Part shown: one piece after another, positions 42,236-63,324 of the stretch
How positions within the stretch are numbered: position 1 is the stretch's first letter
Layout of the letters: every line of letters starts with the position of its first letter
DNA from: Ignavibacteria bacterium UBA2373
Lineage (GTDB): Bacteria; Bacteroidota; Ignavibacteria; Kapaibacteriales; UBA961
Assembly (NCBI GenBank): GCA_002344005.1
Contig: DDTD01000098.1
Coordinates: 18,432 to 82,431, forward strand
Length of the DNA: 64,000 nucleotides
Direction of reading: 5' to 3'
Notes under the pieces: generated by a model
What the model saw: the letters and a program-made list of their open reading frames with translations, nothing else
Database searches by the model: none
What the model was told of the DNA's origin: nothing
Position numbers and translations under genes: made by a program

Positions 42236-42338
42236 TGCACAGCCACCCTTCCCCATCGCTGACGGCGAAAAAAGCGTGGCTATCCCCTCACTTTGGCATG
42301 AAGTGTTTAATTTTGCAAAGATATTCAAGGAGACGACA

Positions 42339-43421: not shown

Positions 43422-43479
43422 TCGAATAATTCTTAATACGCTTTTTTACTATTTACCCATTCCTTCGAGATGGTAGTGC

Positions 43480-44151
43480 ATGAATGATTTTGCCGATAAT
43501 GAAAAAGAACTGATACTCTATTTGCAAAAAGGCGAATCAGCAGCATTGGAATATATTTATGACCATTATAGTGCTGCCCTTTATGGCATCATTGTAAAAA
43601 TTCTCAAAGGAAATAAAATTATTTCCGAAGATGTACTGCAAGAAACATTCATAAAAATTTGGACAAATAGAATCAAATACGATAGCTCAAAAGCTACGCT
43701 GTTTACGTGGATGCTGAATATTGCAAGAAATACTGCCATAGATACATTACGAAGTTCGGATTTTAATAGTCATTCAGTGAACCGTGTTTCCATAGATTCC
43801 GTACATATTGATGAGGAATTACATTCACCATCACCACAGTATGCTGAGGATATTATTCTAAAAGAGATATTGAATCAATTACCGCCGGAGCAAATACAAA
43901 TCATAGAACTTATGTATTATCAAGGATATACACAGACAGAAATAGCGACGCAGTATTCTATTCCGCTTGGCACGGTAAAATCACGTGCTCGATTGGCAAT
44001 TGAAACTCTAAGGAAAATACTTATCCATGACAGTAACATACTTTCCGGAACGTCTCCGCAATCATTTGCAGCGAAACAAACTCTCACTGCAATTATTGCA
44101 GTATTAACATCAGAAATAGTTGATATACCCACCTTGCAATCCACTCTTTAA
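43480..44151 (+). CDS. ECF-subfamily RNA polymerase sigma-70 factor
   Basis: Region 2 (YDHYSAALYGIIVKIL...ETFIKIW) and region 4 HTH (YYQGYTQTEIATQYSIPLGTVKSRARLAIETLRK). Confidence 0.8.
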   Translation: MNDFADNEKELILYLQKGESAALEYIYDHYSAALYGIIVKILKGNKIISEDVLQETFIKIWTNRIKYDSSKATLFTWMLNIARNTAIDTLRSSDFNSHSVNRVSIDSVHIDEELHSPSPQYAEDIILKEILNQLPPEQIQIIELMYYQGYTQTEIATQYSIPLGTVKSRARLAIETLRKILIHDSNILSGTSPQSFAAKQTLTAIIAVLTSEIVDIPTLQSTL

Positions 44152-44205
44152 ACAATAGTGGTATGCAAAGGTGTTCTCTTTCATAGAAAACATAATGACA
44201 TAACT

Positions 44206-45012
44206 ATGAATAGTACAATACATCCGGAAAATGAAGAACATAATCTCGAAGATGCTGCTGTCTATGCGCTTGGCGGAGCAGACATTGGCACGGAACAAGA
44301 GCAAATAAAAAAACATATCTCAGATGCCGAAGCTGTACTCGAAGCATTAGCGTCTGCACATGCTGTCAATCCTTCTCCATCATTAAGACCCCGATTACTT
44401 AATAAAATAATCGGCGGGAAACATTCATTTTCACAGATAATAACATTACAATCAAAAATAAAAAAATATCAACGTTACTCTATTGCCGCAAGTGTCATGT
44501 TCGCAATAACCGCTTCCGCAACACTCTATTACAAACAGTTGCATGATAATTCTAATGCAGCATTACACCTTGTCAAAGAAGAATTAGAAAAAACGAAAGA
44601 ATCGAGCTATGTGCTTGCAACAAAAGCCGATGTTTTAGACCAACGCATCCAATTAGTCACAAATCCTGATATTGTGGAAATATCTATGAAATCACCGAAG
44701 ACAGTGATAAGCCAACCATTACTTCGTACGTCAGTCTATTGGGATACAAAAGAAAATGCAGTGTTTTTGGAAGTCCAATCATTACCGGAAAACAATGATT
44801 CTACGGATTATCAACTGTGGGCAATTTCAGAAGGCAAGCCAAAAGATTTGGGGGTATTTCATTTCAAAAAATCACCATTTATTTTCAAAATGAAAAATAC
44901 CGATTCGGCAGATGCTTTTGCAATTACACTTGAAGAAAAAGGCGGAAAACCTTCGCCAACATTAGAAAATTTAACGGTACTCGGTACAGTATCATCACAA
45001 AATGGTGAATAA
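44206..45012 (+). CDS. Anti-sigma factor (RskA-like; N-terminal anti-sigma domain, single TM, periplasmic domain)
   Basis: Immediately downstream of the ECF sigma gene. AAVYALGGADIGTEQEQIKKHIS anti-sigma N-domain, TM segment YSIAASVMFAITASATLYY, C-terminal RskA-like domain (WAISEGKPKDLGVFHF...FAITLEEKGG). Confidence 0.6.
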   Translation: MNSTIHPENEEHNLEDAAVYALGGADIGTEQEQIKKHISDAEAVLEALASAHAVNPSPSLRPRLLNKIIGGKHSFSQIITLQSKIKKYQRYSIAASVMFAITASATLYYKQLHDNSNAALHLVKEELEKTKESSYVLATKADVLDQRIQLVTNPDIVEISMKSPKTVISQPLLRTSVYWDTKENAVFLEVQSLPENNDSTDYQLWAISEGKPKDLGVFHFKKSPFIFKMKNTDSADAFAITLEEKGGKPSPTLENLTVLGTVSSQNGE

Positions 45013-45016
45013 TCAT

Positions 45017-45055
45017 AAAAAAAAAGCCCTTGTTACAATGTTCCAAGGGCTTCAC
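45017..45055. terminator. Terminator between the anti-sigma gene (+) and the trHb-like lipoprotein gene (-)
   Basis: A9 run then GCCCTTG-ttacaatgttc-CAAGGGC hairpin. On the minus strand the hairpin is followed by U9. Confidence 0.6.
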
Positions 45056-45078
45056 ATTTACCTATTGATCTATCAAAT

Positions 45079-45660
45079 TTATTGCTGAACAATATCCGCT
45101 TTAGTGGTATTGAGCAAGGCAACTAAATCATTAACTAACTGAGCATTATTAGCGGCAGTCACGCCATTTTTTGCCAATCCTACTCCGATATTACCAACAA
45201 AGGCATCAAAATCCGCTGCTGTAATTTTCATTGGAATACGTGAATTTTTAGCAGGATCATGTGCTGCTTTCATATCCAAACCTGAATATGTGTATGTTTT
45301 TGACCCTGTAGCCAAACACATAAAATCAGTAAAATTTTTACTTAATCTACTTAAACCGGTAGTATTTCCCGCGCCTAATTCAGCAAAAAGAACAGGAAAA
45401 TATTTTGCCATTTTGGGATCTGCTGCAATAACAAGAATAGAGCTATCCACAACGCTTCGAAGCGTTAATCGCCCTTTTTCAATCATTGTTGCCGGATTTG
45501 ACGGATCGGACACCATAGTAATTCCCCCCACTCTGTCATAGAGTGATGGTGTGGGTGTCGGTGCAGGGGTTGAAGTCTCTTCAGAACACGAAGCAAAAAG
45601 GACTAACCCGATTATACAAGATGCAGCACTCAAGTGTGCACGTTTTAACGAAAATTGCAT
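45079..45660 (-). CDS. Exported lipoprotein with truncated-haemoglobin (group 1 trHb)-like globin domain
   Basis: Lipobox MQFSLKRAHLSAASCIIGLVLFASC. Then SLYDRVGG...F...A.G.KTYTYSGLDMKAAH...ITAADFDAFVGNIGVGLAKNGV, matching trHbN landmarks (LY[DE][RK][IL]GG; F..A.GGP..Y.G..M...H; F......L.GV). A ~25-aa insertion follows the GG motif. Start moved to ATG 45660. Confidence 0.45.
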   Translation of the reverse strand: MQFSLKRAHLSAASCIIGLVLFASCSEETSTPAPTPTPSLYDRVGGITMVSDPSNPATMIEKGRLTLRSVVDSSILVIAADPKMAKYFPVLFAELGAGNTTGLSRLSKNFTDFMCLATGSKTYTYSGLDMKAAHDPAKNSRIPMKITAADFDAFVGNIGVGLAKNGVTAANNAQLVNDLVALLNTTKADIVQQ

Positions 45661-45724
45661 CGCAATACTCCTAAAAAATTGAAAATAAACTATTAGTACA
45701 GATACTGAACTTTGATATTTGTCG

Positions 45725-46240
45725 CTATTGAAATACTCCATGAATGGTAGCCGATACCTTCCGATAAAAAGAAAGCTGGTCGGCATTTACCGGACAACTG
45801 CCTGCTGTTGTGGGTTGAACTATATATCTTTGAGCATACGTACTTTGAGAATAAAGCCCTGAGTTTTTAACCAAACGATAAACACATTCACTTACCCCCT
45901 CATCACTGCTCATATATTGATGCAATAAGTTTTCTCTCTTTCGATCATAGACATACACCAAAATATTATCGCGTGTGTTCATATATACTGCAATAATGCC
46001 GGGTAAATTTTTTACAAAGGACTGAATGGCTTGTTGTTCTTGTGCTGTAAGATTTCCGTTGAAATCAATCCTTGCTAACTGATGTGTTGTATTGACCGAT
46101 GTCTCATCAGGCAAAGTCACAAAGTAAATATGAACGCACAGTGTGATACATAATCCCAAGACAATGGTCGAAAGTGCAATAATGTAATGTTTCGCCTTAA
46201 TCTTGGGTGCCGCTTTTGGGTGTTGTTGCAAAGATTCCAT
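45725..46240 (-). CDS. Hypothetical membrane-anchored protein
   Basis: 171 aa with a single N-terminal TM helix (YIIALSTIVLGLCITLCVHIYFV). No recognisable domain. Confidence 0.3.
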   Translation of the reverse strand: MESLQQHPKAAPKIKAKHYIIALSTIVLGLCITLCVHIYFVTLPDETSVNTTHQLARIDFNGNLTAQEQQAIQSFVKNLPGIIAVYMNTRDNILVYVYDRKRENLLHQYMSSDEGVSECVYRLVKNSGLYSQSTYAQRYIVQPTTAGSCPVNADQLSFYRKVSATIHGVFQ

Positions 46241-46600
46241 AGTTCTTATAGACTTGTGAATGAAATGTGTTCAATGCCTATACATACGCATGATGCTCAT
46301 AATCAGATCAGTAAAGAATGTATGTTTCCATTCTTAGCATACAATTTTTACATTTTTGACTACCAAACATCAAGTGAGGGAACGAAGAAAAGGCGGATTT
46401 TTCTTATTCGAGAACAAGGTATATGGCCTACCGGAAAGACAGAACTCTTGTAGGACTAAACAAAACATGGCGACACATCCTGCAAAAAAAGTGCACTTTC
46501 CCCATGTATTATCAAAACATTATATTAGACACACACACTTAATATTGGCATAACGCTAAGGTAATAATAGCTCGGTAATTTTGCGACCAAGTTCAAACTA

Positions 46601-49507
46601 ATGAAAGCTGCAAAATTGAAAATCCTTCTTACTCTTTGTTTCGGCATTGCTTTATGTGTTACCACCTCAATAACAGCCCAAGAAAATTCCGCTACTGTAC
46701 AAGGTAAAGTAACCGACGGCTCTACGGGTGATATTATGCGTAGTGTCACCGTTGAATTATTAACCAAAGAAAAACAAAGTACCAAAAAAGGTGCCTATTC
46801 GGATGTAACCGGAAAATACACAATAAAGAAAGTACAGCAAGGCGTATATTCTTTACGCTTCCGTTATGTGGGCTTTGAAAGCAAACTTATAGAAAATGTT
46901 GAAGTAGCTGCGGGCAAAACTGTGACAGTAAATGTGACATTATCGCCCGAAACAAAAAAATCTACCGAAGTAGTTGTCACTGCACGTGCCAATAAAGAAT
47001 CAAAAGAAGCAATTTTAGCACAAAGAAAAAATTCTGCCCAAGTAAGCGATGGCGTGAGCAAAGAAGAAATATCGCGTCTTCCCGATGCCGATGCAGGTCA
47101 AGCACTTAAGCGAGTTTCCGGTGTGACATTAGTGGGCGATAAATTTATTTATGTGCGTGGTTCAAGCGACCGTTACAGCAATACGACATTAAATGGCTCA
47201 ACCCTGACTTCGACCGAACCGGACAAACGTTCTTTCGATTTTGGTATGTTCCCGTCGGAATTTTTACAACAAGCGAATATTACCAAGTCATTTACGCCCG
47301 ATTTACCCGGTAATTTTGCCGGCGGCTTAGTGCAATTACAAACTATAGATTTTCCCGATGGATTTTCCGTAAAAGCATCGCTTTCCACATCGGGAAATAA
47401 TAATACACAAATAGGCGATAATATATTCAGCTCCTATCAAGGCGGCTCAGATGATTGGTTAGCACGCGATGATGGCACGAGATCAATGTCCTCAGCCACT
47501 CCCGGCAGCCGTGAAGATATCAATCGTTTATTATTGAATGCTCGTCGGCAAGATGCGCAAGGAGATTCTGCGCGCACTACCTTACAAAATTTTGCACGCG
47601 GATTTAATCAGAATGTCTGGACAAATAATAATTTTTCGGCTAATCCCAATACATCATTTGCGCTTTCATTTAGTAATTTATATGATGTTTTCGACAATGA
47701 TTTAGGTGTGATTGCATCGGTTAATTATGGTAATTCTTATGCCATTAATTCAATTGTACGCAGCCCCATTCTTGCCGACAAAGAATATCGTCAAGAAAAT
47801 GCGGGTTCTGTGTCCACACGTTCCGTGAATTATGGCGGTATGGCAAATATTGCCTATAAATTAGGAGGTCACAGCTCACTCAGTTTTAAAAATGTGTTTA
47901 ATCGTTCCGCCGATGATGAAACCACACTTTTGCAGGGCAGAGATATTCCGCAAGGTATTGATATTCGCCCATCGAGCTGGCAATTTGTGCAAAAAGAATT
48001 ATTTTCCACACAAGTCAATGGCGAACATACTGTACCGTTTGATAGTACGGCAATTATCTCCTCATTGCTTTTTGATTGGCGATTAGGATATTCACAATCC
48101 CTGCGCGATGAGCCGGATTTCCGTCGTTTGCGTTATTCGCGCCAATCGGTTGATTCGACATTACCGTTTACTGCCGATATACAACCCACACCGCAAGGTG
48201 ATGGCACGCTCGCCGGACGTTTTTATTCTTCATTAAATGATTTTGCCAGAAATGCTGCATTTAATATCGCATTACCTGTGTATCGTGATATGAAATTTAA
48301 AACTGGTTTTCTCACAGAAAATAAAAATCGTTATTTTTCTGCACGCTCATTTACAATTAATCAACCGACAAGCGGTGCTGATGTTGATATAGATTTTTCT
48401 GATACACCGGACAGTTTATTCCGAGCAGAAAATTTCCGTCAGGGTGGTTTGGGAATGTCCGAAGACTCTAAGCGCAGCGATTCTTATATTGCAGGTGAAG
48501 AATTATATGCCGGATATTTTATGATTGATGCACCTTTTTCTGTTGCGGGCGAGCAATTTCGGATTATCGGCGGCGCAAGAGTAGAAGATGCCGTTCAATC
48601 ACTTAATTCATTCGACACAGAAGGAAACCCCATCAATATTACATATGCAACAACAGATTGGCTGCCATCTTTTAATCTTATTTACAAAGCAACGGATGCG
48701 ATGAATTTACGTATGTCGGCAACACGCACATTAACCCGCCCTAATTTACGAGAATTTGCACCTTTTGCATTTTATGATTTCCAATCATTATTCGTTGTAC
48801 GCGGCAATCCGAATTTAGAGCGCACCTTAATTTCCAATTATGATATACGCTATGAATATTTCCCTCAGCCGGGCGAAGTCTTTTCTGTCAGTGTATTTTA
48901 TAAAAACTTTATTAATCCCATCGAAGAAACTATTGATCAAGTATCAAGTGAATATATACGCACATTTTCCAATGGACAAAGTGTTGATTCAACAGGTAAA
49001 AAAATAGCTGATGGCAATGCTTTTAATTATGGAGTTGAATTTGAAGCACGCAAATCCCTTGCATTTTTAGGTGATTATTTTCGCAATTTCGGCATTAATG
49101 CCAATGTATCTCTAATTCAATCAGAAATTACGGTATTGCAAGGCAGAACCGAAGATAAACGCAGTATATGGGGACAATCTCCGTATTCATTAAATATCGG
49201 ATTATTTTTTACGGAACCCGACTTAGGCACATCCGTCAATATTGGCTATAATCGCTATGGTCGCCGTATTGTTCAAGTTGGCTTGCGCGGTGCATTTGCA
49301 TTCGACGATCCTCATGTGTATGAGCAACCGCGAGATGTTATTGATATTTCCATTATTCAGCCATTATTAGACAATGCCTTTGAAGTTAAATTAGTTGCGC
49401 GCGACATTCTTAATCAAGAATTATTATGGCAACAAGGCGGCAAAACCATTGCTTCTAATTTGCGCGGCACAACTTTCAGTATAGGCATGAGCTACCGTTT
49501 TCGTTAA
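46601..49507 (+). CDS. TonB-dependent receptor with N-terminal carboxypeptidase-regulatory-like domain
   Basis: Signal peptide. CarbopepD_reg-like beta-sandwich (ATVQGKVTDGSTGDIMRSVTVELL...GKYTIKKVQQGVYSLRFRYVGFES). Plug (DAGQALKRVSGVTLVGDKFIYVRGS). 22-strand barrel ending ...TTFSIGMSYRFR. 968 aa. Confidence 0.8.
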   Translation: MKAAKLKILLTLCFGIALCVTTSITAQENSATVQGKVTDGSTGDIMRSVTVELLTKEKQSTKKGAYSDVTGKYTIKKVQQGVYSLRFRYVGFESKLIENVEVAAGKTVTVNVTLSPETKKSTEVVVTARANKESKEAILAQRKNSAQVSDGVSKEEISRLPDADAGQALKRVSGVTLVGDKFIYVRGSSDRYSNTTLNGSTLTSTEPDKRSFDFGMFPSEFLQQANITKSFTPDLPGNFAGGLVQLQTIDFPDGFSVKASLSTSGNNNTQIGDNIFSSYQGGSDDWLARDDGTRSMSSATPGSREDINRLLLNARRQDAQGDSARTTLQNFARGFNQNVWTNNNFSANPNTSFALSFSNLYDVFDNDLGVIASVNYGNSYAINSIVRSPILADKEYRQENAGSVSTRSVNYGGMANIAYKLGGHSSLSFKNVFNRSADDETTLLQGRDIPQGIDIRPSSWQFVQKELFSTQVNGEHTVPFDSTAIISSLLFDWRLGYSQSLRDEPDFRRLRYSRQSVDSTLPFTADIQPTPQGDGTLAGRFYSSLNDFARNAAFNIALPVYRDMKFKTGFLTENKNRYFSARSFTINQPTSGADVDIDFSDTPDSLFRAENFRQGGLGMSEDSKRSDSYIAGEELYAGYFMIDAPFSVAGEQFRIIGGARVEDAVQSLNSFDTEGNPINITYATTDWLPSFNLIYKATDAMNLRMSATRTLTRPNLREFAPFAFYDFQSLFVVRGNPNLERTLISNYDIRYEYFPQPGEVFSVSVFYKNFINPIEETIDQVSSEYIRTFSNGQSVDSTGKKIADGNAFNYGVEFEARKSLAFLGDYFRNFGINANVSLIQSEITVLQGRTEDKRSIWGQSPYSLNIGLFFTEPDLGTSVNIGYNRYGRRIVQVGLRGAFAFDDPHVYEQPRDVIDISIIQPLLDNAFEVKLVARDILNQELLWQQGGKTIASNLRGTTFSIGMSYRFR

Positions 49508-49563
49508 GTAACTGTAAAAAAAACATATCTATTATTTATACACAATATCTCTAAGGAAATTGT

Positions 49564-52500
49564 ATGAAATTATTTACTGCCGTGACAACCGCATTGCTGT
49601 TCTGGGGAGCAATGTCGAGTGTTCAGTCACAAACTGTGCAGCTTTTATCACCGGGTGGTTCACCCAATGAGAGTTATCGTGCAGGTAATTCCGTTGATTT
49701 GGTGTATCAAACATCACCCTCCACAGTGACACCTCGCCCGCGCTATCGCTTTGAATTCAGCACATCTCCGAACGGACCTTGGACTTCAATCTCAGGTGCA
49801 ACCAATGTGGTGGACAGTAATGCAAGCGGCACTGTTCGCGCAGGTCGTTTTATTGGTGCTTTTCGCATTCCGGCAACGCCAACAAATACGGGTTATGTTC
49901 GCCAAGTATTATTAAGCGATCCGTCAAAAACAAGTATCAGTCCTTTTCCCTTTAAAATCGAACAACCGCAAACAACACGCATAGACGAATTTTTACAAGG
50001 TGCTGTCGGTGCGGGCGAAACACGTACATTGACACGCGATAAAGTCTATGGAATTAAAGGATATTTCCACGTTGATAATGGCGGTACTTTAGTTATTGAA
50101 CCGGGAACTATTGTCGTTGGCGATCAAGTGGGTGTTAATAGTGCACTTGTCATCAATCGTGGCGGTAAAATTATAGCCGATGGCAGAGCCGATGCACCTA
50201 TTGTTCTTACAAGCAGTGCGCCTCCGGGCTTACGTGCTCCGGGTGATTGGGGTGGATTACTCATTTTCGGTAAAGCAGTTATTAATAATCCGGGCGGTGA
50301 AGCAGCTATGGAAGGCGGTGTTGCCGATCCGAATAATAAATCACGTTGGTATTATGGCGGTAATGATGATAATGATAATAGCGGAATATTGCGCTATGTG
50401 CGTATTGAATTCGGCGGTATTGCTTTGCAACCGAATCAAGAATTAAACGGACTTACATTAGGTGCTGTGGGACGTGGTACTATTATGGAAAAAGTACAGG
50501 TCAGCTATGCTAATGATGATGCTTATGAATGGTTCGGCGGCACGGTTAATGGCAAATATCTTATCTCAACTTCCTGCCTTGATGATGATTTTGATGCGGA
50601 TAATGGTTGGAGCGGCAAAGTACAATATGCCGTAGCTCAACGTTCAACCAATCGCGCCGACCAATCCACAAGTCAAGCATTTGAAACCGATAATGATGCA
50701 AGCGGCTCATTCCGAATTCCACGCACATCGGGTATATTTTCTAATGTGACAGTTATCGGTCCATTACAAGATGTTTCCGCCACACCGAATCCTCGATTCG
50801 GTGCAGCGGCGCAAATCCGACGCGCTTCTCTCTTATCCATCTATAATTCAATATTTCTCGGCTGGCCCCGCGGTATCGAAATTGCGCAAACGCCAACGAT
50901 GAATGCTGCATATAATGATACAGTTCAAGTGCGTAATTGTGCATGGTATGGCATAAAAACATCATGGCTTAATCTTGCGGGCGGTACTCCCCCATCGGGA
51001 ATGACAACATCGTGGATAAGCACAGGACGCTTCAATAATGTGAATGATGCATCGAATAATCCGTCTGCGGCATTACTCGAAAATCCTTTTTCGGATATAG
51101 CATTCAGTGCCGTTCCATTAGCAGGTTCTCCTGTATTGTCAGGTGCTTCCTTTGTTCGTGACGGTGTTCCGGCAATTGATGATTCATTTTTTGATAAAGT
51201 TTCTTTCCGTGGTGCATTCGGTAGTGATATGCGCTGGGATTATGGATGGGCAAATTATGATCCTGTCAATGCTGCCTATATCGCAGGCGCACCAACAGTT
51301 GCCGGAGCTTCATTACGTTTGACGGCACCTTCAACTGGACGCGTTTATGTGGCAGGTACAACAGCAACTATCGAATGGGACACCACCGGTACACGTGGTT
51401 TACGCTATAAATTCCAAACCGCTACTTCTATAGACGGTCCTTGGACAGATATTCAAGGTGCGGAGAGTATCACCGATGAAGGCAGTACACGCGGTCGCAT
51501 CGTCAATGGATATAAAGTGCCGTCCACACCATCAACCAATGCATATATTCGCATGGTTGCATTACGCAATGATGGTAGTATCAATACAGATGCATCCAGT
51601 ATTCTTGGACCTTTAACTATTGTTTCTTATACACTTACCTCACCCAAAGGCGGCGAAGTTTATCGTGCGGGATCACGTCAATTATTAGCATGGAAACAAG
51701 AACCACAAGGCGAATTAATCGGCACAGTCAAATTACGCTTCGAGTATGCAACATCTAATTCGGGACCTTGGACACCAATTCCGGGTGCAGAAATGGTCGA
51801 AGACAATGATGATAAAGTATTACAAGGCGGCTTAGTATTACCTCTTACCCAAACTGAAACTGCTTTTGTCAGAATGACCGTGCTTAATGAAGATGGCAGC
51901 CCTACAAGTATAAGTTCTACGAATGCACAGCCCTTCAAAGTTATCGGTATTCGCTTACTTTCTCCGGCAAGTGCTGCATCGCTCAAAGGCGGCAGCAAAG
52001 TGGACATTATGTGGGATACCACAGCAACAGCAGGATCACGCTTCCGTTTCCAATATCGCTTGAATGATACCGAACAATGGAATGATATCCAAGGGGCAAC
52101 GAATGTCTTAGACGCAGGTGCAAATCGTGGTAAAATTGTAGGCGGTTTTACCGTGCCAAATGTAGCCACAACAAACGGTTATGTTCGCATGACAGCACTT
52201 GCTGAAAATGGCAATCCTATTGAGGCTCTTTCCTCACAAAATGAACAACCATTTACTATTACAGTTGATAAACCCGTTGATGGCATCGTACGCATTATCA
52301 CTCCGGGTGCAGCAGCGGGCGAACGCTATCGTCCGGGACGCTCTTTAGATATTACCTATGATACAGTAGGTGGTTACCGTCGTCGCTATCGTTTTGAGTA
52401 TGGCACATCCGCCAATGGTCCTTGGACTGTCATTAAAGGTCTTGAAAATATTATTGACAGTAATAGAAGCAGCACACTTCGTCGCGGACGTATTACCGGA

Positions 52501-54219
52501 GGTTTCCTCGTGCCTGACCAGCTAACAAAAACAGCATATTTACGCATGGTATTATTATCGGATGAATCCAAAGTTGATATTACCGATAATCCTATCGAAA
52601 TATTCCGCCCGACAGCAAGTAAAGTGGATTCCGTTTTAAGCGGTTCTATCAATAAACGTGTATTTCTCTCTAACACTAAAATATATGGTTTACGCGGTTA
52701 TGTACACGTTGACAATGGCGGTGTTTTAGTCATTCAACCGGGTACAATAATTCTTGGTGATTCAGTAGGAAAAAATTGCGCACTTGTTGTGAATCGCGGT
52801 GGTAAAATTATCGCAAAAGGTACAGCAAAATTACCGATAGTATTTTCAAGTCTTGCAGCTCCGGGACAACGAGAATCCGGTGATTGGGGTGGATTACTAA
52901 TTTTCGGTAAAGCAGTTATTAATAATCCGGGCGGCGAAGCAGCTATGGAAGGTGGCGTTGCCGATCCGAATAATAAATCACGCTGGTATTATGGCGGTAA
53001 TGATGACAATGACAGCAGCGGTATTCTTGAATATGTCCGTATTGAATTTGCAGGACTTGCATTACAACCCAATCAAGAATTAAATGGCTTAACGATGGGT
53101 GGTGTTGGTCGCAAAACAGTAATGAATAATATTCAAATCAGCTATGCCAATGATGATTCATTCGAATGGTTCGGCGGTACCGTTAATGCAAAAAATATTA
53201 TTTCTATCGGTGCATTAGATGATGATTTTGATGGTGATAATGGCTGGAGTGGAAAAGTACAATTCGCTATAGCACAACGTCACCCTAACAGAGCAGATCA
53301 ATCCACAAGTCAGGCAATGGAAATGGATAATGATGCGAGCGGCTCAACACGCAAACCACTCACCTCCCCTATTTTTTCCAATATGACTGTAATCGGTCCT
53401 ATCAATGATACTTCCAAAGTGCCGAATCCTCGTTATGGTGCTGCCATACAAATACGTCGCAATGCCAGAACATCTGTTTTCAATTCAGCAATTCTCGGCT
53501 GGGGACGCGGAATGGAAATTGCACAAACTACAACGATGAATGCCGCAAAAAATGATTCCTTACAATTCCGCAATAATGCAATGTTCGGTATTCGTTCTAC
53601 TCTCTTAAATTTGGCAGGTGGCACTCCGCCGACAGGCATGACAACAGAATGGATTAATACTCCTGCATTTAATAATACAATGGATAAATCATCACCTCAA
53701 AAAGCAGGTTTACAAAATCCTTTCGAGATTGTTGAATTTAATCCTGCTGCAATGGAAAGTTCACCATTACTTAGCGGAGCAAATTTCACAAATAGTGGTA
53801 TTATTGCAATTGATGATGCCTATTTTGAAAAAGTACAATTCCGCGGTGCAATGGGATTACAACGCTGGGATGCAGAATGGACAGAATATGATCCTATTAA
53901 TGCTGAATATAAAGCACAACAAGCTCCGGTTTCTGTGAATGAAAACAGCATAAATACTTCTGATATTGTGGCATCGGTTTATCCGAATCCCACTCATGAT
54001 AAATGTATTGTGAAATATCAAACACGCAAAGACGGAATGGTAAAAGCACAATTTGTCAATGCTATGGGCGACATTGTTTCTACATTCTTTGCCGAGCAAC
54101 AACAAGCGGGATTTTATCAATTCAATATTAATGTTCAGGATATGCCAACCGGATTATATTTTGTTCGTATTGAGTCTGATAATAACACAATGACTATACC
54201 TGTATCAGTGTATAAATAA
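49564..54219 (+). CDS. Giant (1551 aa) T9SS-secreted protein with an internal ~870-aa duplication (two beta-helix-like modules plus multiple Ig/Fn3-like modules)
   Basis: Signal peptide. Two copies of the segment beginning HVDNGGTLVIEPGTIVVGD...GDWGGLLIFGKAVINNPGGEAAMEGGVADPNNKSRWYYGGNDDND (aa ~170-540 and ~1045-1420). Repeated ~100-aa modules SP..G..YRAG...D..Y.T...NGPWT.I.GA.N..D. C-terminal T9SS tail ...GLYFVRIESDNNTMTIPVSVYK. Confidence 0.6.
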   Translation: MKLFTAVTTALLFWGAMSSVQSQTVQLLSPGGSPNESYRAGNSVDLVYQTSPSTVTPRPRYRFEFSTSPNGPWTSISGATNVVDSNASGTVRAGRFIGAFRIPATPTNTGYVRQVLLSDPSKTSISPFPFKIEQPQTTRIDEFLQGAVGAGETRTLTRDKVYGIKGYFHVDNGGTLVIEPGTIVVGDQVGVNSALVINRGGKIIADGRADAPIVLTSSAPPGLRAPGDWGGLLIFGKAVINNPGGEAAMEGGVADPNNKSRWYYGGNDDNDNSGILRYVRIEFGGIALQPNQELNGLTLGAVGRGTIMEKVQVSYANDDAYEWFGGTVNGKYLISTSCLDDDFDADNGWSGKVQYAVAQRSTNRADQSTSQAFETDNDASGSFRIPRTSGIFSNVTVIGPLQDVSATPNPRFGAAAQIRRASLLSIYNSIFLGWPRGIEIAQTPTMNAAYNDTVQVRNCAWYGIKTSWLNLAGGTPPSGMTTSWISTGRFNNVNDASNNPSAALLENPFSDIAFSAVPLAGSPVLSGASFVRDGVPAIDDSFFDKVSFRGAFGSDMRWDYGWANYDPVNAAYIAGAPTVAGASLRLTAPSTGRVYVAGTTATIEWDTTGTRGLRYKFQTATSIDGPWTDIQGAESITDEGSTRGRIVNGYKVPSTPSTNAYIRMVALRNDGSINTDASSILGPLTIVSYTLTSPKGGEVYRAGSRQLLAWKQEPQGELIGTVKLRFEYATSNSGPWTPIPGAEMVEDNDDKVLQGGLVLPLTQTETAFVRMTVLNEDGSPTSISSTNAQPFKVIGIRLLSPASAASLKGGSKVDIMWDTTATAGSRFRFQYRLNDTEQWNDIQGATNVLDAGANRGKIVGGFTVPNVATTNGYVRMTALAENGNPIEALSSQNEQPFTITVDKPVDGIVRIITPGAAAGERYRPGRSLDITYDTVGGYRRRYRFEYGTSANGPWTVIKGLENIIDSNRSSTLRRGRITGGFLVPDQLTKTAYLRMVLLSDESKVDITDNPIEIFRPTASKVDSVLSGSINKRVFLSNTKIYGLRGYVHVDNGGVLVIQPGTIILGDSVGKNCALVVNRGGKIIAKGTAKLPIVFSSLAAPGQRESGDWGGLLIFGKAVINNPGGEAAMEGGVADPNNKSRWYYGGNDDNDSSGILEYVRIEFAGLALQPNQELNGLTMGGVGRKTVMNNIQISYANDDSFEWFGGTVNAKNIISIGALDDDFDGDNGWSGKVQFAIAQRHPNRADQSTSQAMEMDNDASGSTRKPLTSPIFSNMTVIGPINDTSKVPNPRYGAAIQIRRNARTSVFNSAILGWGRGMEIAQTTTMNAAKNDSLQFRNNAMFGIRSTLLNLAGGTPPTGMTTEWINTPAFNNTMDKSSPQKAGLQNPFEIVEFNPAAMESSPLLSGANFTNSGIIAIDDAYFEKVQFRGAMGLQRWDAEWTEYDPINAEYKAQQAPVSVNENSINTSDIVASVYPNPTHDKCIVKYQTRKDGMVKAQFVNAMGDIVSTFFAEQQQAGFYQFNINVQDMPTGLYFVRIESDNNTMTIPVSVYK

Positions 54220-54248
54220 TTCCTTTTCCTCCTACCCCACACGGAAAA

Positions 54249-54287
54249 GCGGGCGTATTTCTTCGGAAATGCGCCCATTTTTTTTTT
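54249..54287 (+). terminator. Rho-independent terminator after the 1551-aa T9SS gene
   Basis: GCGGGCG-tatttcttcggaaat-GCGCCC hairpin followed by T10. Confidence 0.7.
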
Positions 54288-54420
54288 GCAAAACAGCGCT
54301 ATTTGGATTCATTCTGAATAGTTACAATTTAATAATGAATCAATAATATATCCATAAAATTCCGGTAATCTCCAAACGGTAATTTTGTGAATATTATTAA
54401 CATCTTTATTTAGAGGAAAA

Positions 54421-56283
54421 ATGAAAAAATCTCTACTCGTCGGATTATTATCCGTTTCGTTAATTTCGCAAGCAGCAGGCGCAGAATTTCCTACAAAAGT
54501 TCAGCCGAAATCAATGATTCCTTATATAACACATAGCGTTGTTGTGCCACCATCACCATTAAAATATCAAGTGTTGTTTATTGGTGGTGTGCATGATGTA
54601 CAAACTACACCCACATACGGTAAACCCGCAGGCGCAACCAAAGCCAAACAATGGCATGACTTTATCGGCTTTACAAAAGCTGATGCAACAAAAGGCGAAA
54701 CAGGACTTGGTTGGATTTCTGTGAATCATGAAATGGTTCAAGCCAATGATAATATCGGTGATGGCGGCGGAATGACCGTGTTCAAAGTTGCAAAAAGCGG
54801 TGACTCAATTATTGTTGTTGATCAAACACTTTCTGATGGTCGTACAGGAAAATATTTTAATGTTGATTTTGTGAATACAGTTGGCGAAACAGGTATGAAT
54901 TGCGGTGGTATTCAAAGCCCTGATGGTCGTATCTGGACAGCAGAAGAATGGTTCCGCAGTGCAAATAATGATGGCACAGGCGATGATATTTTCCAAAAAG
55001 GCACAGGTGTGCGTGATACGTCTGATTTTACGATTGGCACGACAACTCCCAATGGTTTCCCGGGATATAATGGCACAAAAATCAAAAAATACCAAAATTT
55101 TAACTGGATGGTAGAAATTGACCCTCGCACTGCCAAAGCAGTTCGCAAACAATATAATTGGGGTCGTCAAGGATTTGAAGGCGGCGCGGTATTGCCTGAT
55201 AATAAAACAGTTATTCTCGGTGAAGATGGTGATGCAGGAGCTTCATTATTAACAAAATTTGTTGCCGATACACCGGGTGATTTTACAAAAGGAAAAACAT
55301 ATATATTCAAACAAAAAGATAATTCATTCCAAGGCGATTGGATTGAAGTACCACAGGACATCAATACGATGCTCGATATTCATACATGGGCTAAACAAAA
55401 TAATGCTACCGGCTTTACACGTATAGAATGGGTTACATTTGACAAAAAAACTAATACTATTTATATGACCGAAACAGGTTCCGATGCACCGGGTTCGGCA
55501 ATCAAGAAAAATATGGCAGCAGGTTTCGGTATCCCAAAACATTACAAAGACATGGCAACAGCTTCAAAAACAACTGTTGACAGCAGCACATTCAATGATT
55601 ATTATGGCAGAGTATTGTCATTAGATTTAACAACAAATGAAGTTAAATCATACATTGAAGGCGGTCCAAAATTGGACGAAAAAAAGGCTTATACAGAATA
55701 TCCTGATAAACATTTAACTAACCCTGACGGATTAACTATTTTAGAAGTAAAAAACAAAAGATACCTAATTATCTGCGAAGATCTTAACGGTACATCATTT
55801 GGACGTGTTCCTTTCGGCATGAGCAATCGCAGTTGTGAAATTTATGCTCTTGATTTGGATGCTGAACCGAAAATCGAAAATCTTACTCGTTTAGCAATCG
55901 TACCCTATGGTGCAGAGGTTACCGGTGCATGCGCAATTGATAATGGCAATACATTATTATTCAATTCTCAGCACCCAAGTTCATACAATCAATACCCTTA
56001 TAACAATTCTTTGACTGTGGCAATCTCCGGTTTCGATAAATTAGTAACGGGTATTAAAGAATTAGATGGTACTTCTTCCATTAAAGGAATAAAAGTCTAT
56101 CCTAATCCGGCATCACGCGAATTACGTTTCGATAATACCATGGACGCTGCTTTGTATAATAATGAAGGCAGTAGAGTACGTGTTGTCCGTAATGCTAATA
56201 CTATGGACATTTCCGATCTTAATGCAGGTGTCTATTTCTTAATGAACAATGACGGCGATACACAAAAAGTAATTATTGAATAA
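54421..56283 (+). CDS. PhoX-like (DUF839) beta-propeller phosphatase-family protein with T9SS C-terminal domain
   Basis: Signal peptide. GWISVNHEM, LTNPDGLTIL and TLLFNSQHPS resemble conserved PhoX segments (NPDN..., LFVNIQHPGE). C-terminal ...GIKVYPNPASRELRF...GVYFLMNNDGDTQKVIIE is a T9SS CTD. Confidence 0.5.
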   Translation: MKKSLLVGLLSVSLISQAAGAEFPTKVQPKSMIPYITHSVVVPPSPLKYQVLFIGGVHDVQTTPTYGKPAGATKAKQWHDFIGFTKADATKGETGLGWISVNHEMVQANDNIGDGGGMTVFKVAKSGDSIIVVDQTLSDGRTGKYFNVDFVNTVGETGMNCGGIQSPDGRIWTAEEWFRSANNDGTGDDIFQKGTGVRDTSDFTIGTTTPNGFPGYNGTKIKKYQNFNWMVEIDPRTAKAVRKQYNWGRQGFEGGAVLPDNKTVILGEDGDAGASLLTKFVADTPGDFTKGKTYIFKQKDNSFQGDWIEVPQDINTMLDIHTWAKQNNATGFTRIEWVTFDKKTNTIYMTETGSDAPGSAIKKNMAAGFGIPKHYKDMATASKTTVDSSTFNDYYGRVLSLDLTTNEVKSYIEGGPKLDEKKAYTEYPDKHLTNPDGLTILEVKNKRYLIICEDLNGTSFGRVPFGMSNRSCEIYALDLDAEPKIENLTRLAIVPYGAEVTGACAIDNGNTLLFNSQHPSSYNQYPYNNSLTVAISGFDKLVTGIKELDGTSSIKGIKVYPNPASRELRFDNTMDAALYNNEGSRVRVVRNANTMDISDLNAGVYFLMNNDGDTQKVIIE

Positions 56284-56303
56284 ATAACACTAATATTCGT
56301 AAA

Positions 56304-56338
56304 AACCGGTGATGTACGTGCATCATCGGTTTTTTTTT
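56304..56338 (+). terminator. Rho-independent terminator after the PhoX-like gene
   Basis: AACCGGTGATG-tacgtg-CATCATCGGTT hairpin followed by T8. Confidence 0.7.
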
Positions 56339-56351
56339 ATATGAGAGACCT

Positions 56352-58265
56352 ATGAAAAAAATTAGTATAATCGGTATTTTTCTTCTTTTTGGATTTACCG
56401 TCATCACCCCTACGTCACAGTTTACCATGACTTCATCGCATGTCTTGAGAAATTCGCTATCTATTGTAGAATCTTCTCTACAAAGACTCAAAGATATTGT
56501 CAAGACTCAAAAAGAAGACAGCATAAAAGCGTTATATCATATCAGCAGAAACAATTACAAACAGTGTGAATTTATCATTGAATATTATGATGGGGGTTTA
56601 GTATCATCAATAATCAATGCCGCTCCCCTTCCAAAATTAAATCCATCATCGGCACAAACTGACATATTGGAACCTCATGGTTTTCAGGTATTGGATGAAA
56701 TAATATACGCAGACGATCAATCACTTGAACAACGTTCCGATGCCATCATCAAAGAAATTGATTATATACTCCATTCTCTTCATGATTTTTCGCTGCTTGC
56801 ACAAGGCATACATATAGAAAAACGCCATCTATTAGAGTCAATACAATTAGGACTATTAAGGGTTGTTTCATTAGGTATTACGGGTTTTGATACACCGGGA
56901 TCGGATAATGCCATTGGGGAAACATCATTTGTACTTCAGTCTATGGCACAGTATATATCTCTACTCCAACCACTTTCTACTCAAGAAAAAAAATCACTGC
57001 AACAGACCTTAACGCTCTGCAAACAAGCATCACAATATTGTAAAAAAAATAAGAATTTCGATACGTTCGACAGGGCATCTTTTATTCGTGAATACGCGGA
57101 ACCATTATTTAAAAAAATTCAAGCTCTCTACACTGATTTTTCTATTGAATATTATGATGAAACAACAACAAGACCATCGTCAATTAATTTTCGCAGCCCA
57201 TCACTTTTTTCCACGACACTTTTTTCTGCTTCATACTATACCCGACAAATGCCGCAAGATATAAATGATACACGAAAATACTTAGGTAAACTCTTATTTT
57301 TTGATCCCATACTTTCACGAAACAGTGAACGCTCATGTGCTTCATGTCATCAACCGGAAAAAGCATTTACGGATGGTTTACCAACAAGTATGGCATTCAA
57401 TAAACAAGGTAATATCTTACGCAATGCCCCTACGCTAATCAATGCAATCTATGCCGGTCGCTTATTTTATGACTTACGTGCCCATTCATTTGAAGATCAA
57501 GTGCAACATGTGGTGACTGATGACAATGAGTTTCATTCAGATTTTTCAACCATTATTTCTAAGATGGAATCTTCGACAGAATACCGAGAATTATTTTCAA
57601 AAGCATTTCCCGACATAAAACATAATAATATTTCGCCATACACAATAAGCGCAGCTTTGGGTGCATATCAAATGACTCTTGTGTCGTTCAACTCAGATTT
57701 TGACAAATATATCCGTTCTGAAAAAAAATCAGTCTCTCGGGAAGTAAAAAACGGCTTTAATCTTTTTATGGGAAAAGCAGCTTGTGGTACATGTCATTTT
57801 GCTCCAACATTTGCAGGCTTGGTACCGCCTCGGTTTACTGAGAGTGAGTCTGAAATATTAGGTATTCTTCAGCAATTTGACACTCTCTCACCTAAACTTG
57901 ACACAGATGCAGGCAGATATGCGGGTCATGCCAAAGACCAAGTTGCACTGTACAAAAGATCATTCAAAACAATGACTGTACGTAACAGTGGATTAACCGC
58001 ACCATATTTTCATAATGGGAAATTTAAGACTCTTGAGCAAGTTCTCGAATTTTATGACCACGGAGGTGGAGCAGGATTAGGGTTAGATGTCCCCTATCAA
58101 ACGCTGCCCTCCGACAAACTTCATTTAACGAAAAATGAAAAACGTGATATTATTGCATTTCTTCACTCATTAACGGATACAACAGGTTTGACAAATAAAC
58201 CGAGTAAACTTCCTGCCATAGAATCGCAGAAAGCATCAGGCAGAACTATTGGTGGTTTGTATTAA
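56352..58265 (+). CDS. Di-haem cytochrome-c peroxidase-family protein with ~300-aa N-terminal helical extension
   Basis: Two CxxCH haem sites (CASCHQPEKAFTDG and CGTCHFAPTFAG) and YFHNGKFKTLEQVLEFYDHGGG typical of bacterial CCP/MauG-family. N-terminal 300 aa are helical, contain an H-x-x-x-x-x-E stretch (EPHGFQVLDEI) and are not part of canonical CCPs. Confidence 0.7.
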   Translation: MKKISIIGIFLLFGFTVITPTSQFTMTSSHVLRNSLSIVESSLQRLKDIVKTQKEDSIKALYHISRNNYKQCEFIIEYYDGGLVSSIINAAPLPKLNPSSAQTDILEPHGFQVLDEIIYADDQSLEQRSDAIIKEIDYILHSLHDFSLLAQGIHIEKRHLLESIQLGLLRVVSLGITGFDTPGSDNAIGETSFVLQSMAQYISLLQPLSTQEKKSLQQTLTLCKQASQYCKKNKNFDTFDRASFIREYAEPLFKKIQALYTDFSIEYYDETTTRPSSINFRSPSLFSTTLFSASYYTRQMPQDINDTRKYLGKLLFFDPILSRNSERSCASCHQPEKAFTDGLPTSMAFNKQGNILRNAPTLINAIYAGRLFYDLRAHSFEDQVQHVVTDDNEFHSDFSTIISKMESSTEYRELFSKAFPDIKHNNISPYTISAALGAYQMTLVSFNSDFDKYIRSEKKSVSREVKNGFNLFMGKAACGTCHFAPTFAGLVPPRFTESESEILGILQQFDTLSPKLDTDAGRYAGHAKDQVALYKRSFKTMTVRNSGLTAPYFHNGKFKTLEQVLEFYDHGGGAGLGLDVPYQTLPSDKLHLTKNEKRDIIAFLHSLTDTTGLTNKPSKLPAIESQKASGRTIGGLY

Positions 58266-58629
58266 ATGATTGAACTATCCATTCTTTTTTGTATTCCACC
58301 ATTTTTTGAATAAGGTCATAAGGCATCGGTTTATTCAAGGGAAATTGCACCGAGCCCTTACCTTGTTTATAGAGTGATAATTCTTCTGCAAAATATTCAT
58401 GAGCTGAAGGTGTGGCATAAAGACCGATATGTGTTTTAAATGCAGCAAAATATAGTAATGGTTTACCCCGATACGTATAAGCCGGCATCGAATATGCAAT
58501 GCTTTCTTTCGCATCGGGTACAGCCATCAAAACAATACTTCGGATATTTAGTAAATATTGTTGGATTATTTCCGAATACTGTGATATATATTCAGCGACA
58601 TTCTCTGCTTTTTTATTTGTTTTTTTCAT
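58246..58629 (-). CDS. DUF1801 (YdhG-like) protein
   Basis: 127 aa. AENVAEYISQYSEIIQQYLLNIRSIVLMAVPDAKESIAYSMPAYTYRGKPLLYFAAFKTHIGLY matches the YdhG/DUF1801 pattern. Confidence 0.6.
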   Translation of the reverse strand: MKKTNKKAENVAEYISQYSEIIQQYLLNIRSIVLMAVPDAKESIAYSMPAYTYRGKPLLYFAAFKTHIGLYATPSAHEYFAEELSLYKQGKGSVQFPLNKPMPYDLIQKMVEYKKEWIVQSFNTNHQ

Positions 58630-58654
58630 AGAATTATTGCTTTATTCTCTATAA

Positions 58655-59536: not shown

Positions 59537-59653
59537 ACAATTCTCTTTTTTGAAACAAAATGATGAAGCAAACTTAGAAAACTTCTTGAACATACATACT
59601 AATCTTTTGTCGAATAATGACACAAACGTATCTTTGCACAATGTACGAAGGAG

Positions 59654-61195: not shown

Positions 61196-61196
61196 A

Positions 61197-61228
61197 TAAA
61201 AAAATCACCCCATTTTCATGGGGTGATA
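61197..61228. terminator. Shared terminator between the convergent vWA (+) and VIT-vWA (-) genes
   Basis: A8 run, then TCACCCCA-ttttca-TGGGGTGA hairpin. Canonical on the minus strand. A-run and hairpin only on the plus strand. Confidence 0.6.
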
Positions 61229-61257
61229 CATACATGAATAAATAATGTGGTGATACT

Positions 61258-63309: not shown

Positions 63310-63324
63310 GATGTTTATTGGATA

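Follow-up and report, generated by a model that had tools for sequence, protein, structure and literature searches.

The locus described here occupies 15 kb (positions 43,480 to 58,265) of a 64,000-nucleotide stretch of DNA from Ignavibacteria bacterium UBA2373 (contig DDTD01000098.1), which is referred to as the window. It encodes an extracytoplasmic function (ECF) sigma factor, an anti-sigma factor, an exported lipoprotein, a membrane protein, a TonB-dependent receptor (TBDR), a giant protein with beta-helix modules, a PhoX-like protein, and a di-haem protein of the cytochrome c peroxidase (CCP)/MauG type. We consider it probable that these 15 kb are a mosaic of three independent modules, of which the second and third are most likely phosphate-starvation genes. 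The first module would be a portable cassette of an ECF sigma factor and an RskA-type anti-sigma factor, with an operon for a transmembrane (TM) protein and a truncated-haemoglobin-like lipoprotein as its likely target. The second would be a two-gene operon for a non-SusC TonB-dependent transporter (TBDT) and a beta-helix partner that is secreted or located at the surface, in this case a duplicated version sorted by the type IX secretion system (T9SS). The third would consist of the gene for a PhoX-like metallophosphatase, exported by Sec and the T9SS, and, directly after it, that for a periplasmic di-haem enzyme of the imelysin-like/MauG type. An earlier note on this DNA had regarded all of these genes as a single neighbourhood devoted to envelope functions and placed under the sigma factor; its observation was largely right and its interpretation largely wrong. 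The locus is a portable ECF cassette juxtaposed with two gene pairs of known kinds, and the combination is not a new system. The supposed sigma-controlled envelope system resolves into known building blocks and does not merit further pursuit as a novel regulon.

Synteny in a sister genome and across Bacteroidota

The genome of a sister species (GCA_046338975.1, a Kapaibacterium; locus L088) was compared with the window by blastn. It was collinear with the window at 42283-43393 (98.7% identity) and at 46483-64000 (95.1% identity), and carried 102 bp in place of window positions 43394-46482, with no blastn match in between. The 3.1 kb missing from it comprise the genes for the sigma factor, the anti-sigma factor, the lipoprotein, and the membrane protein together with the distal part of the intergenic region, while the 118 bp directly upstream of the TBDR gene, promoter motif included, are kept. 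Because this block is missing from an otherwise collinear genome the locus is not one sigma-controlled unit, and the sigma/anti-sigma pair does not head the neighbourhood as had been supposed. Inspection of the indel junctions revealed no repeats or mobile-element signatures. The ATG start codon of the TBDR gene at window position 46601 is ACG in the sister genome (L088 2189-2197), where the called protein is five codons shorter (963 aa vs 968 aa).

Gene neighbourhoods were further compared across 80 loci, for which an alignment of PhoX-like homologues served as the anchor and up to 10 kb on each side were included (one genome per species; Kapabacteria, Ignavibacteria, Flavobacteriales, Cytophagales, and Chitinophagales), using tblastn with the window proteins. 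The di-haem gene, including the part for its N-terminal domain, was located directly downstream of the PhoX-like gene and in the same orientation in 76/80 loci, the remaining four being contigs that ended there. De novo clustering of the open reading frames (ORFs) of the 80 loci identified nothing beyond these two genes that was conserved in more than 19 loci. A reverse search starting from two distant di-haem homologues (L103, L104) likewise recovered a PhoX gene immediately upstream, with housekeeping genes around the pair. In L087 (83% identical) and L089 (60% identical) the pair was present in wholly different contexts, without the TBDR or the giant protein. Homologues of the sigma factor, the anti-sigma factor, the lipoprotein, and the membrane protein were absent from the 80 loci save for three generic sigma factor matches of 28-31% identity, and sigma/anti-sigma homologues were absent from three loci with a TBDR/beta-helix pair (L090, L091, L092) and from the two di-haem-anchored loci. 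With the sigma block being an indel relative to the sister genome, and the di-haem gene being the only one found universally beside the PhoX-like gene, this comparison spoke against a clustering of the whole locus as one unit. What plausibly remains of the single functional neighbourhood are the TBDR, giant, PhoX-like, and CCP genes; the sigma block drops out of it.

Lineage-specific third genes were observed directly after the di-haem gene (loci L011-L034 and others). In 16 loci this gene encoded an endonuclease/exonuclease/phosphatase-like protein whose tail is T9SS-like. A hybrid histidine kinase and a cation-diffusion-facilitator-like protein were encoded in 10 loci each, and a protein of about 440 aa, which has a CxxCH-like motif and matches Cu2_monoox_C weakly, in nine.

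The PhoX-like protein and its di-haem partner

The most interesting element of the locus is the pair of PhoX and a MauG-like partner, which has already been noted and never characterised. The PhoX-like protein scored 82.8 bits against Pfam model PF05787 (threshold 24), and its family profile matched PhoX from P. fluorescens (3zwu/4amf) with an E-value of 1.8e-10, the VEIDP, PDGLG, GxEVTG, and QHP motifs being common to both; the alignment to the PhoX structures in the PDB covered the C-terminal two thirds only. More than 1100 homologues were found across Bacteroidota. In the PhoX-like proteins the sequence N160-C161-G-G is invariant and contains a candidate for the cysteine ligand of the PhoX motif. 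The N-terminus of the window protein (MKKSLLVGLLSVSLISQAAGA) has no twin-arginine motif; it carries a Sec-type signal peptide and, at the other end, a T9SS C-terminal domain (CTD), in agreement with the earlier call of a T9SS-secreted protein. Characterised PhoX enzymes are substrates of the twin-arginine translocation (Tat) pathway. Judged by these features the protein is a putative Fe/Ca metallophosphatase exported through Sec and the T9SS. A Flavobacterium PhoX homologue has been reported to keep 9/10 of the residues (PMC8115612).

The di-haem protein was analysed using a profile of 35 sequences together with an AlphaFold model (pLDDT 79.5; mostly >90 in the N-terminal domain). The N-terminal domain (residues ~25-290) is imelysin/EfeO-M75-like: the profile matched EfeM (7q1g) with an E-value of 5e-6, Foldseek returned Algp7, EfeM, and EfeO (E-values 1e-5 to 1e-4, target-normalised TM-scores 0.55-0.75), and the imelysin model PF09375 was precomputed on three homologues. 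This gives an identity to the extension of ~300 aa that had been pointed out as an unusual N-terminal domain. An invariant Gln112 (G-[FL]-Q-x-x-[DE]-E) stands where the HxxE motif canonically has its histidine. In the C-terminal domain the two haem-binding motifs, C329xxC332H333 and C478xxC481H482, were invariant in 35/35 sequences. This domain resembled MbnH and bacterial CCPs (Foldseek target-normalised TM-score of about 0.7), and MbnH (6e1c) was the best PDB match overall. Tyr568, likewise invariant in all 35 sequences, aligned with Met275, the E-haem ligand of the P. nautica CCP (1nml), and with the tyrosine of the MbnH sequence 'IDIYSEGG'. The residues of the Ca site are conserved, and there is no equivalent of the distal His71. 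The position of the inter-haem tryptophan, which is conserved in bacterial CCPs, MauG, and MbnH, is occupied by Tyr in 31/35 sequences, Trp in three, and Leu in one (residue 373). Since its scores fall well below the cut-offs of the NCBIfam models for MbnH (TIGR04039; 185.2 vs 362.85 bits) and MauG (TIGR03791; 168.7 vs 443.85 bits), the protein is a distinct subfamily and neither MbnH nor MauG proper.

MauG-type enzymes are distinguished by His/Tyr rather than His/Met ligation of the E-haem; poor as peroxidases, they employ H2O2 for the oxidation of a partner protein and not for peroxide detoxification (PMC11892367). By this criterion the tyrosine ligand, as predicted from alignment only, assigns the di-haem domain to the MauG type, and together with the top PDB match it upholds the earlier remark that the CCP resembles MbnH. 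With MauG-preMADH and MbnH-MbnP it has in common the two c-haems, the E-haem tyrosine, the lack of an equivalent of the distal His71, the Ca-site residues, and a gene located beside that of a candidate protein substrate. It differs from them in the inter-haem tyrosine, in the additional imelysin-like domain, in its sub-cut-off scores, and in its neighbour, which is a PhoX-like propeller and not MbnP or MADH. The EfeUOB/M systems resemble it in combining a periplasmic domain of the imelysin/M75 fold with a haem peroxidase, and several acidic residues align with EfeM motifs; in the window protein, however, a single chain carries both functions, its peroxidase belongs to the di-haem c-type and not to the DyP type (EfeB), and the HxxE histidine is a glutamine.

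In every Flavobacterium genome phoX forms an operon with a MauG-like gene, and phoX_Fj alone was inactive in P. putida, the authors suggesting that the MauG-like partner may be needed (PMC8812569). The operon described by Lidbury et al. (PMC8115612, PMC8812569) resembles the window in that a PF05787 gene precedes a MauG-like di-haem gene (PF03150) and in that the pair is widespread in Bacteroidota. The Flavobacterium PhoX has been described as a lipoprotein, whereas the PhoX-like protein of the window, which belongs to Kapabacteria, has a T9SS CTD, and the imelysin-like domain, the His/Tyr ligation, and the intergenic hairpin of the window are not mentioned in these two papers. The window genes are likened to Fjoh_2478 and Fjoh_2477 of F. 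johnsoniae by family and gene order.

We infer that the di-haem fusion may act as a peroxide-driven periplasmic helper that would activate the PhoX-like protein before its export by the T9SS, a role for which the case appears close to evenly balanced. Activation in the periplasm would be needed, according to this proposal, because the Fe(III)/Ca cofactor could not be assembled in the cytoplasm as in Tat-exported PhoX. The helper might supply the Fe(III)/Ca cofactor with iron that it has oxidised, following the logic of EfeO/EfeB, or might oxidatively modify a residue, following that of MauG/MbnH. More tentatively, and a little short of that balance, the fusion could be the dedicated periplasmic maturase of Sec/T9SS-exported PhoX-like phosphatases throughout Bacteroidota. 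We propose with the same reserve that such a maturase would employ a high-valent haem derived from H2O2 either for extracytoplasmic assembly of the Fe(III)-oxo/Ca cofactor or for installing a protein-derived modification. If true, it would be the third MauG-class enzyme/substrate system after MauG-MADH and MbnH-MbnP, and would explain why the PhoX enzymes of Bacteroidota need no Tat export. The idea that the Flavobacterium PhoX requires its MauG-like neighbour was already voiced (PMC8812569); to this we add the architecture of the fusion, the invariance of the pair across the phylum, and the rationale of Sec versus Tat export. As PhoX-like proteins are always accompanied by an imelysin-MauG-type protein across the phylum, the published idea of a PhoX maturation factor becomes directly testable.

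It seems unlikely that the di-haem fusion is instead a stand-alone periplasmic enzyme, whether a peroxidase for peroxide detoxification or an EfeO/EfeB-like component for oxidising and taking up ferrous iron, linked to the PhoX-like protein by shared regulation only. Such a role would agree with the EfeO/imelysin-like N-terminal domain, with the CCP fold and its conserved Ca-site residues, and with the terminator-like hairpin that precedes the di-haem gene in most loci, but enzymes with His/Tyr ligation are poor peroxidases that act on protein substrates with H2O2 (PMC11892367), and phoX_Fj was inactive on its own in the heterologous host. Moreover, adjacency to the PhoX-like gene was essentially invariant in both search directions, as is typical of enzyme/partner pairs and not of mere co-regulation, and the clustering of the 80 loci revealed no EfeU-like permease or other iron-uptake gene conserved near the pair.

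The hairpin between the two genes is followed by a T-run that ends only 13 nt before the ATG of the di-haem gene. Among 76 orthologous spacers, which have a median length of 81 nt, a hairpin with a T-run was present in 49; it is GC-rich and recurrent, and its sequence is not conserved. Given the 13-nt gap to the start codon and the invariant adjacency of the genes, it is read as a probable attenuator, or partial terminator, within one operon, and it may set unequal expression of the PhoX-like and di-haem genes. Both terminator-like hairpins on which the earlier note had based separate transcription units were thus present, and the separation holds at the terminator after the giant gene, whereas it is doubtful between the PhoX-like and CCP genes.

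Promoters and a probable link to phosphate limitation

The second conserved two-gene unit consists of the TBDR and the beta-helix protein. This follows from their gap of 56 nt without a terminator and from the location of a CarboxypepD_reg-type TBDR gene directly before a Beta_helix_4 gene in 3/3 independent loci (L090, L091, L092), which had no other neighbours in common; direct adjacency of a TBDR and a beta-helix gene was also found in the sister genome and in L035-38, L049, L053, and L061. The giant protein is a head-to-tail fusion of two units of ~550 aa (residues 25-574 vs 909-1451, 62% identical), each composed of an Ig-like domain and a right-handed beta-helix module of ~440 aa, and extra Ig-like domains join the units. 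It has a signal of the signal-peptidase-I type and a T9SS CTD, not a lipobox. The module corresponds to Pfam family PF28492 (Beta_helix_4, precomputed), and its AlphaFold model is a right-handed beta-helix (pLDDT 91), so that the beta-helix-like modules suspected in the 1551-aa protein were confirmed by structure prediction. Its top Foldseek matches in the PDB were all pectate lyases, polygalacturonases, or tailspikes, and a sequence search of the PDB with the giant protein returned no match. Homologues of the module number in the thousands, usually as single-module proteins of ~675 aa that end in a T9SS tail; the sister genome has the same 1551-aa form as the window.

Similar pairs are known. 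ElpS of Caulobacter is a phosphate-starvation lipoprotein whose gene is next to that of the TBDR CC0171 (PMC2996285). The homologous BT4055/BT4056 pair is conserved in 621 genera, and Price et al. propose that the beta-helix lipoprotein is a lid for the transporter (bioRxiv 10.1101/2023.03.17.533168). In F. johnsoniae the lipoproteins FI-FIII, which are induced under inorganic phosphate (Pi) depletion, have weak similarity to pectate lyases and polygalacturonases; all are related to ElpS, and one adjoins a TBDT (PMC8115612). In all of these cases, as in the window, a non-SusC TBDT is encoded directly beside a right-handed beta-helix exoprotein, and the window TBDR resembles the TBDTs of ElpS/BT4056-type partners in being TonB-Xanth-Caul-like with a CarboxypepD_reg N-terminus. 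The window partner differs from ElpS, BT4056, and FI-FIII in being T9SS-sorted, encoded downstream of the TBDR, and built as a tandem double module of 1551 aa. Beta-helix lipoproteins of Flavobacteriales, which have lipoboxes and no Pfam or NCBIfam match, were 39-40% identical to the window module; together with the fold and the gene order this suggests that the module belongs to the ElpS family. The earlier statement that the combination is not a described system was accordingly wrong for its parts, as both the ElpS/BT4056-TBDT pairs (PMC2996285; bioRxiv 10.1101/2023.03.17.533168) and the phoX/MauG-like operon and Pi-induced TBDT/lipoprotein clusters of Flavobacterium (PMC8115612, PMC8812569) are in the literature.

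The promoters of the two units were compared within the window. The sequence GGTAAT-N8-GGTAATTTTG occurs in the 64 kb exactly twice, at 46560-46583 upstream of the TBDR gene and at 54364-54387 upstream of the PhoX-like gene (both on the plus strand), and GGTAAT-N8-GGTAAT was found on either strand only at 46560 and 54364, both copies running into TAATTTTG. The latter is the Bacteroidota -7 promoter box, and GGTAATTTTG contains TAnnTTTG. The exact 11-mer CGGTAATTTTG is also present inside genes at 47308 (plus strand) and 52826 (minus strand), all four copies lying within 46.5-54.4 kb. A scan for sigma-70-type promoters was rejected as uninformative (62 sites vs 54 expected); Bacteroidota promoters use TAnnTTTG as the -7 box instead.

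Both promoter regions also contain hexamers phased at 11 bp. In the 180 nt upstream of 78 orthologous PhoX-like genes (scanned in loci L010-L086) NTAAC/NTTAC cores were enriched 2.7-fold and phased at 11, 22, and 32 bp, with 27 core pairs spaced at 11 bp vs 0.8 in controls. When the whole window was scored for four-unit phased arrays using a position weight matrix (PWM) for the unit, which was trained on PhoX-like upstream regions of other taxa with the close relatives of the window excluded, the region upstream of the TBDR gene ranked first and that upstream of the PhoX-like gene fifth. A two-repeat Pho-box PWM was dropped as too weak, the TBDR site ranking ninth; the four-unit phased score was better. 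Similar phased arrays were visible upstream of the beta-helix/TBDR operons in L036, L038, L049, L053, L061, and L090. TAAC repeats with an 11-bp period have the architecture of PhoB/PhoP boxes and are a candidate Pho box for Bacteroidota. Because both promoters rank among the top phased arrays, it is plausible that the TBDR and PhoX-like units share a phosphate-responsive regulator.

A connection with phosphate is also suggested by relatives. In F. johnsoniae Pi depletion strongly induces both the PhoX_like gene Fjoh_2478 and its neighbour, the MauG_like gene Fjoh_2477 (PMC8115612). Several Flavobacteriales loci have genes for a PhoB-like regulator, a beta-helix lipoprotein, a TonB-Xanth-Caul-type TBDR, and an Na/Pi symporter with a PhoU domain in this order, and the PhoX-like/di-haem pair follows a few kb on, after intervening genes. 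In about 10/80 loci the PhoX-like/di-haem pair had a TBDR/beta-helix pair no more than 10 kb away, in at least four gene orders and in distant lineages, where roughly one co-occurrence would be expected by chance. The link between the two pairs is clearly facultative.

Under phosphate limitation a PhoB-type regulator would activate the TBDR and PhoX-like promoters. The PhoX-like protein would be exported by Sec, fold in the periplasm, be secreted or attached to the surface by the T9SS, and hydrolyse organophosphates with release of phosphate, while a substrate that contains phosphorus, or a related one, would be captured and imported by the TBDR together with its beta-helix partner. We infer Pho regulation in this organism and the substrate of the TBDR from the promoters and the relatives described above.

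Several observations weigh against this reading. The hexamers in the window are degenerate, TAAT being commoner than TAAC, and a site in a coding region at 6286, which looks like chance, ties for the top phased-array score. The two pairs are close to each other in only about an eighth of the loci compared. The fold matches of the beta-helix module in the PDB are weak (E>=2.5e-3), its kinship to ElpS, BT4056, and FI is drawn from fold, gene order, and identity to lipoproteins of FII-like context, and the window protein has a T9SS CTD in place of a lipid anchor. For the di-haem enzyme, loss of the HxxE histidine to the invariant Gln112 makes metal binding by the N-terminal domain uncertain, and the strong hairpin in front of its gene could mean that it is expressed separately from the PhoX-like gene.

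The two pairs might be unrelated neighbouring cassettes without common regulation or function, which we think improbable. About 70/80 loci have no TBDR/beta-helix pair within 10 kb of the PhoX-like/CCP pair, L087 has the latter in a different context, and a strong terminator separates the pairs in the window, all as coincidence would have it. It does not account for pairs that are found together in at least four gene orders and in distant lineages, for a GGTAAT-N8-GGTAATTTTG element that is unique in the window to these two promoters, both of which are in the top five phased arrays, or for the membership of homologues of both pairs in the Pi-depletion response of Flavobacterium.

The constant pairing of PhoX-like and di-haem proteins is also of relevance to organic-phosphorus mineralisation in soils, waters, and wastewater communities (enhanced biological phosphorus removal, EBPR) where Kapabacteria live. 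The present analysis adds to the published pair its invariance across Bacteroidota, the imelysin-like fusion, the tyrosine ligand, the intergenic hairpin, and the candidate Pho-box pattern of TAAC repeats with an 11-bp period.

The ECF cassette and the gene inventory

The sigma block is a portable four-gene cassette, in which the operon for a TM protein and a lipoprotein faces the genes for an ECF sigma factor and an RskA-type anti-sigma factor in convergent orientation. The sigma factor is closest to the SigK/PRK12519 type, its top NCBIfam matches being PRK12519 and SigK, both below cut-offs. A metagenome scan using the lipoprotein as query identified ten relatives (loci L093-L102). The gene of the 171-aa membrane protein was directly upstream of the lipoprotein homologue in 10/10 loci, and in four of them (L094, L098, L099, L101) the sigma/anti-sigma pair adjoined this operon in convergent orientation; two relatives with full flanks had no such pair beside it. 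TBDR, beta-helix, PhoX, and CCP genes were found near the operon in 0/10 loci. The 171-aa protein and the lipoprotein have no Pfam or NCBIfam family match.

An ECF-type two-block motif, A(T/A)CC-N15-16-CGTA, was present ~45 nt upstream of the membrane-protein gene in 9/10 relatives, and the window copy (ATCT-N16-CGTA) has one mismatch and the same spacing. The TM-protein/lipoprotein operon is the likely target of the sigma factor of the cassette. In the window this motif was not found upstream of the TBDR, PhoX-like, or di-haem genes. A search for k-mers common to the upstream region of the sigma gene and the other promoters yielded only the 9-mer GATTATGAG, shared with the region upstream of the TM-protein gene and not significant, and no autoregulatory motif was established. 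The promoter that the earlier note expected to be shared (GAAC/CGTC) was found neither in 46241..46600 nor in 54290..54420; GAAC-N15-19-CGTC had four matches in the window vs 4.3 expected, none of them in these two regions.

The lipoprotein probably starts at MQFSL..., followed by the lipobox LFASC. All 14 PDB matches of its family profile were group-1 truncated haemoglobins (trHbN), and G45 and G46 (the GG hinge) as well as H134, which aligns with the proximal histidine, are invariant in the family. Its description as globin-like is supported to this extent, although the matches are marginal (best E-value 6e-4) and Pfam gave no Bac_globin match. A small portable cassette with an exported truncated-haemoglobin-like lipoprotein as its likely target is of interest in itself, as such a lipoprotein under ECF control would be unusual.

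The cassette resembles SigK-RskA (ECF19-like) in its PRK12519/SigK-closest sigma factor, in the RskA_C domain of the anti-sigma factor, and in a likely target that is an adjacent operon for exported proteins; it differs in scores below the equivalog cut-offs and in targets unrelated to the mycobacterial mpt70/83. FecIR signalling, to which the locus had been compared, likewise has an ECF sigma factor, a membrane anti-sigma factor, and a TBDR in one neighbourhood. This analogy, together with that to MbnIR, fails because the TBDR lacks an STN signalling domain, the anti-sigma factor is of the RskA and not the FecR type (Pfam), and the block is dispensable in the sister genome. With regard to MbnIRT-PH the window also lacks the context of MbnT, MbnI, and MbnR, and no conserved TBDT adjoined the di-haem gene across the 80 PhoX-anchored loci.

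A single cell-surface-signalling regulon, in which the TBDR would sense a ligand and the anti-sigma factor would free the ECF sigma factor to drive the TBDR, giant, PhoX-like, and CCP genes, is largely refuted and most improbable: the physical adjacency of the eight genes, the MbnH-like CCP, and the ECF sigma/FecR-like pairs in Pi-responsive TBDT clusters of F. johnsoniae (PMC8115612) would suit it, but it is contradicted by the loss of the sigma block from the sister genome with the TBDR promoter kept, by the lack of sigma/anti-sigma pairs in PhoX-anchored (save the three sigma matches mentioned) and TBDR/beta-helix loci, by the domain content of the TBDR and the anti-sigma factor, and by the absence of either ECF-type motif from the relevant upstream regions.

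Gene content was checked by ORF listing and by Pfam and NCBIfam scans of the window proteins (Table 1). The domain calls of the earlier note were correct, and the count of genes is eight, not nine.

Table 1. Genes and other features of the locus, with positions in the window.
Feature	Position	Strand	Evidence or remarks
3.1-kb block with sigma, anti-sigma, lipoprotein, and TM-protein genes	43394..46482		present in window, absent from L088
ECF sigma factor	43480-44151	+	Pfam Sigma70_r2, r4, ECF
Membrane anti-sigma factor with RskA_C	44158-45012	+	Pfam PF10099, E=7.9e-15
Exported lipoprotein, truncated-haemoglobin-like	45079-45660	-	lipobox LFASC; family profile
171-aa single-pass membrane protein	45725-46240	-	first gene of operon, before lipoprotein
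Candidate ECF-type promoter ATCT-N16-CGTA	46285..46308	-	~45 nt upstream of 171-aa gene
TBDR promoter region	46526..46583	+	11-bp phased TAA(C/T) hexamers, then GGTAAT-N8-GGTAATTTTG
TBDR, CarboxypepD_reg + Plug + barrel, TonB-Xanth-Caul-like	46601-49507	+	Pfam/NCBIfam
1551-aa T9SS cargo (giant protein)	49564-54219	+	PF28492 and Por_Secre_tail; residues: signal peptide, Ig, beta-helix 136-574, four Ig domains, beta-helix 1017-1451, CTD 1472-1551
Intrinsic terminator, end of TBDR/giant operon	54251..54285	+	hairpin 54251-54276, 11-bp stem, 6 GC pairs, then T9
PhoX-like promoter region	54319..54387	+	five 11-bp phased hexamers, then GGTAAT-N8-GGTAATTTTG
PhoX-family beta-propeller with Sec signal peptide and T9SS CTD	54421-56283	+	PF05787, 82.8 bits
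Hairpin and T-run between PhoX-like and di-haem genes	56301..56338	+	hairpin 56301-56334
CCP_MauG di-haem protein with ~300-aa N-terminal extension	56352-58265	+	Pfam CCP_MauG, E=2.3e-45

Outside the locus, an ORF of 148 aa at 41789-42235 (plus strand) matches only the last ~150 positions of the C-terminal domain of Type ISP restriction enzymes (E=3.7e-42) and is probably a gene remnant; in the sister genome a gene for an N6_N4 methyltransferase precedes the amidohydrolase gene that the window also has. On the other side, at 59654-63309 and beyond, the window has genes for a VWA_CoxE-like protein and for two large proteins of the VIT/VWA kind whose T9SS tails are weak; the synteny of these genes is kept in the sister genome, and they are unrelated to the locus.

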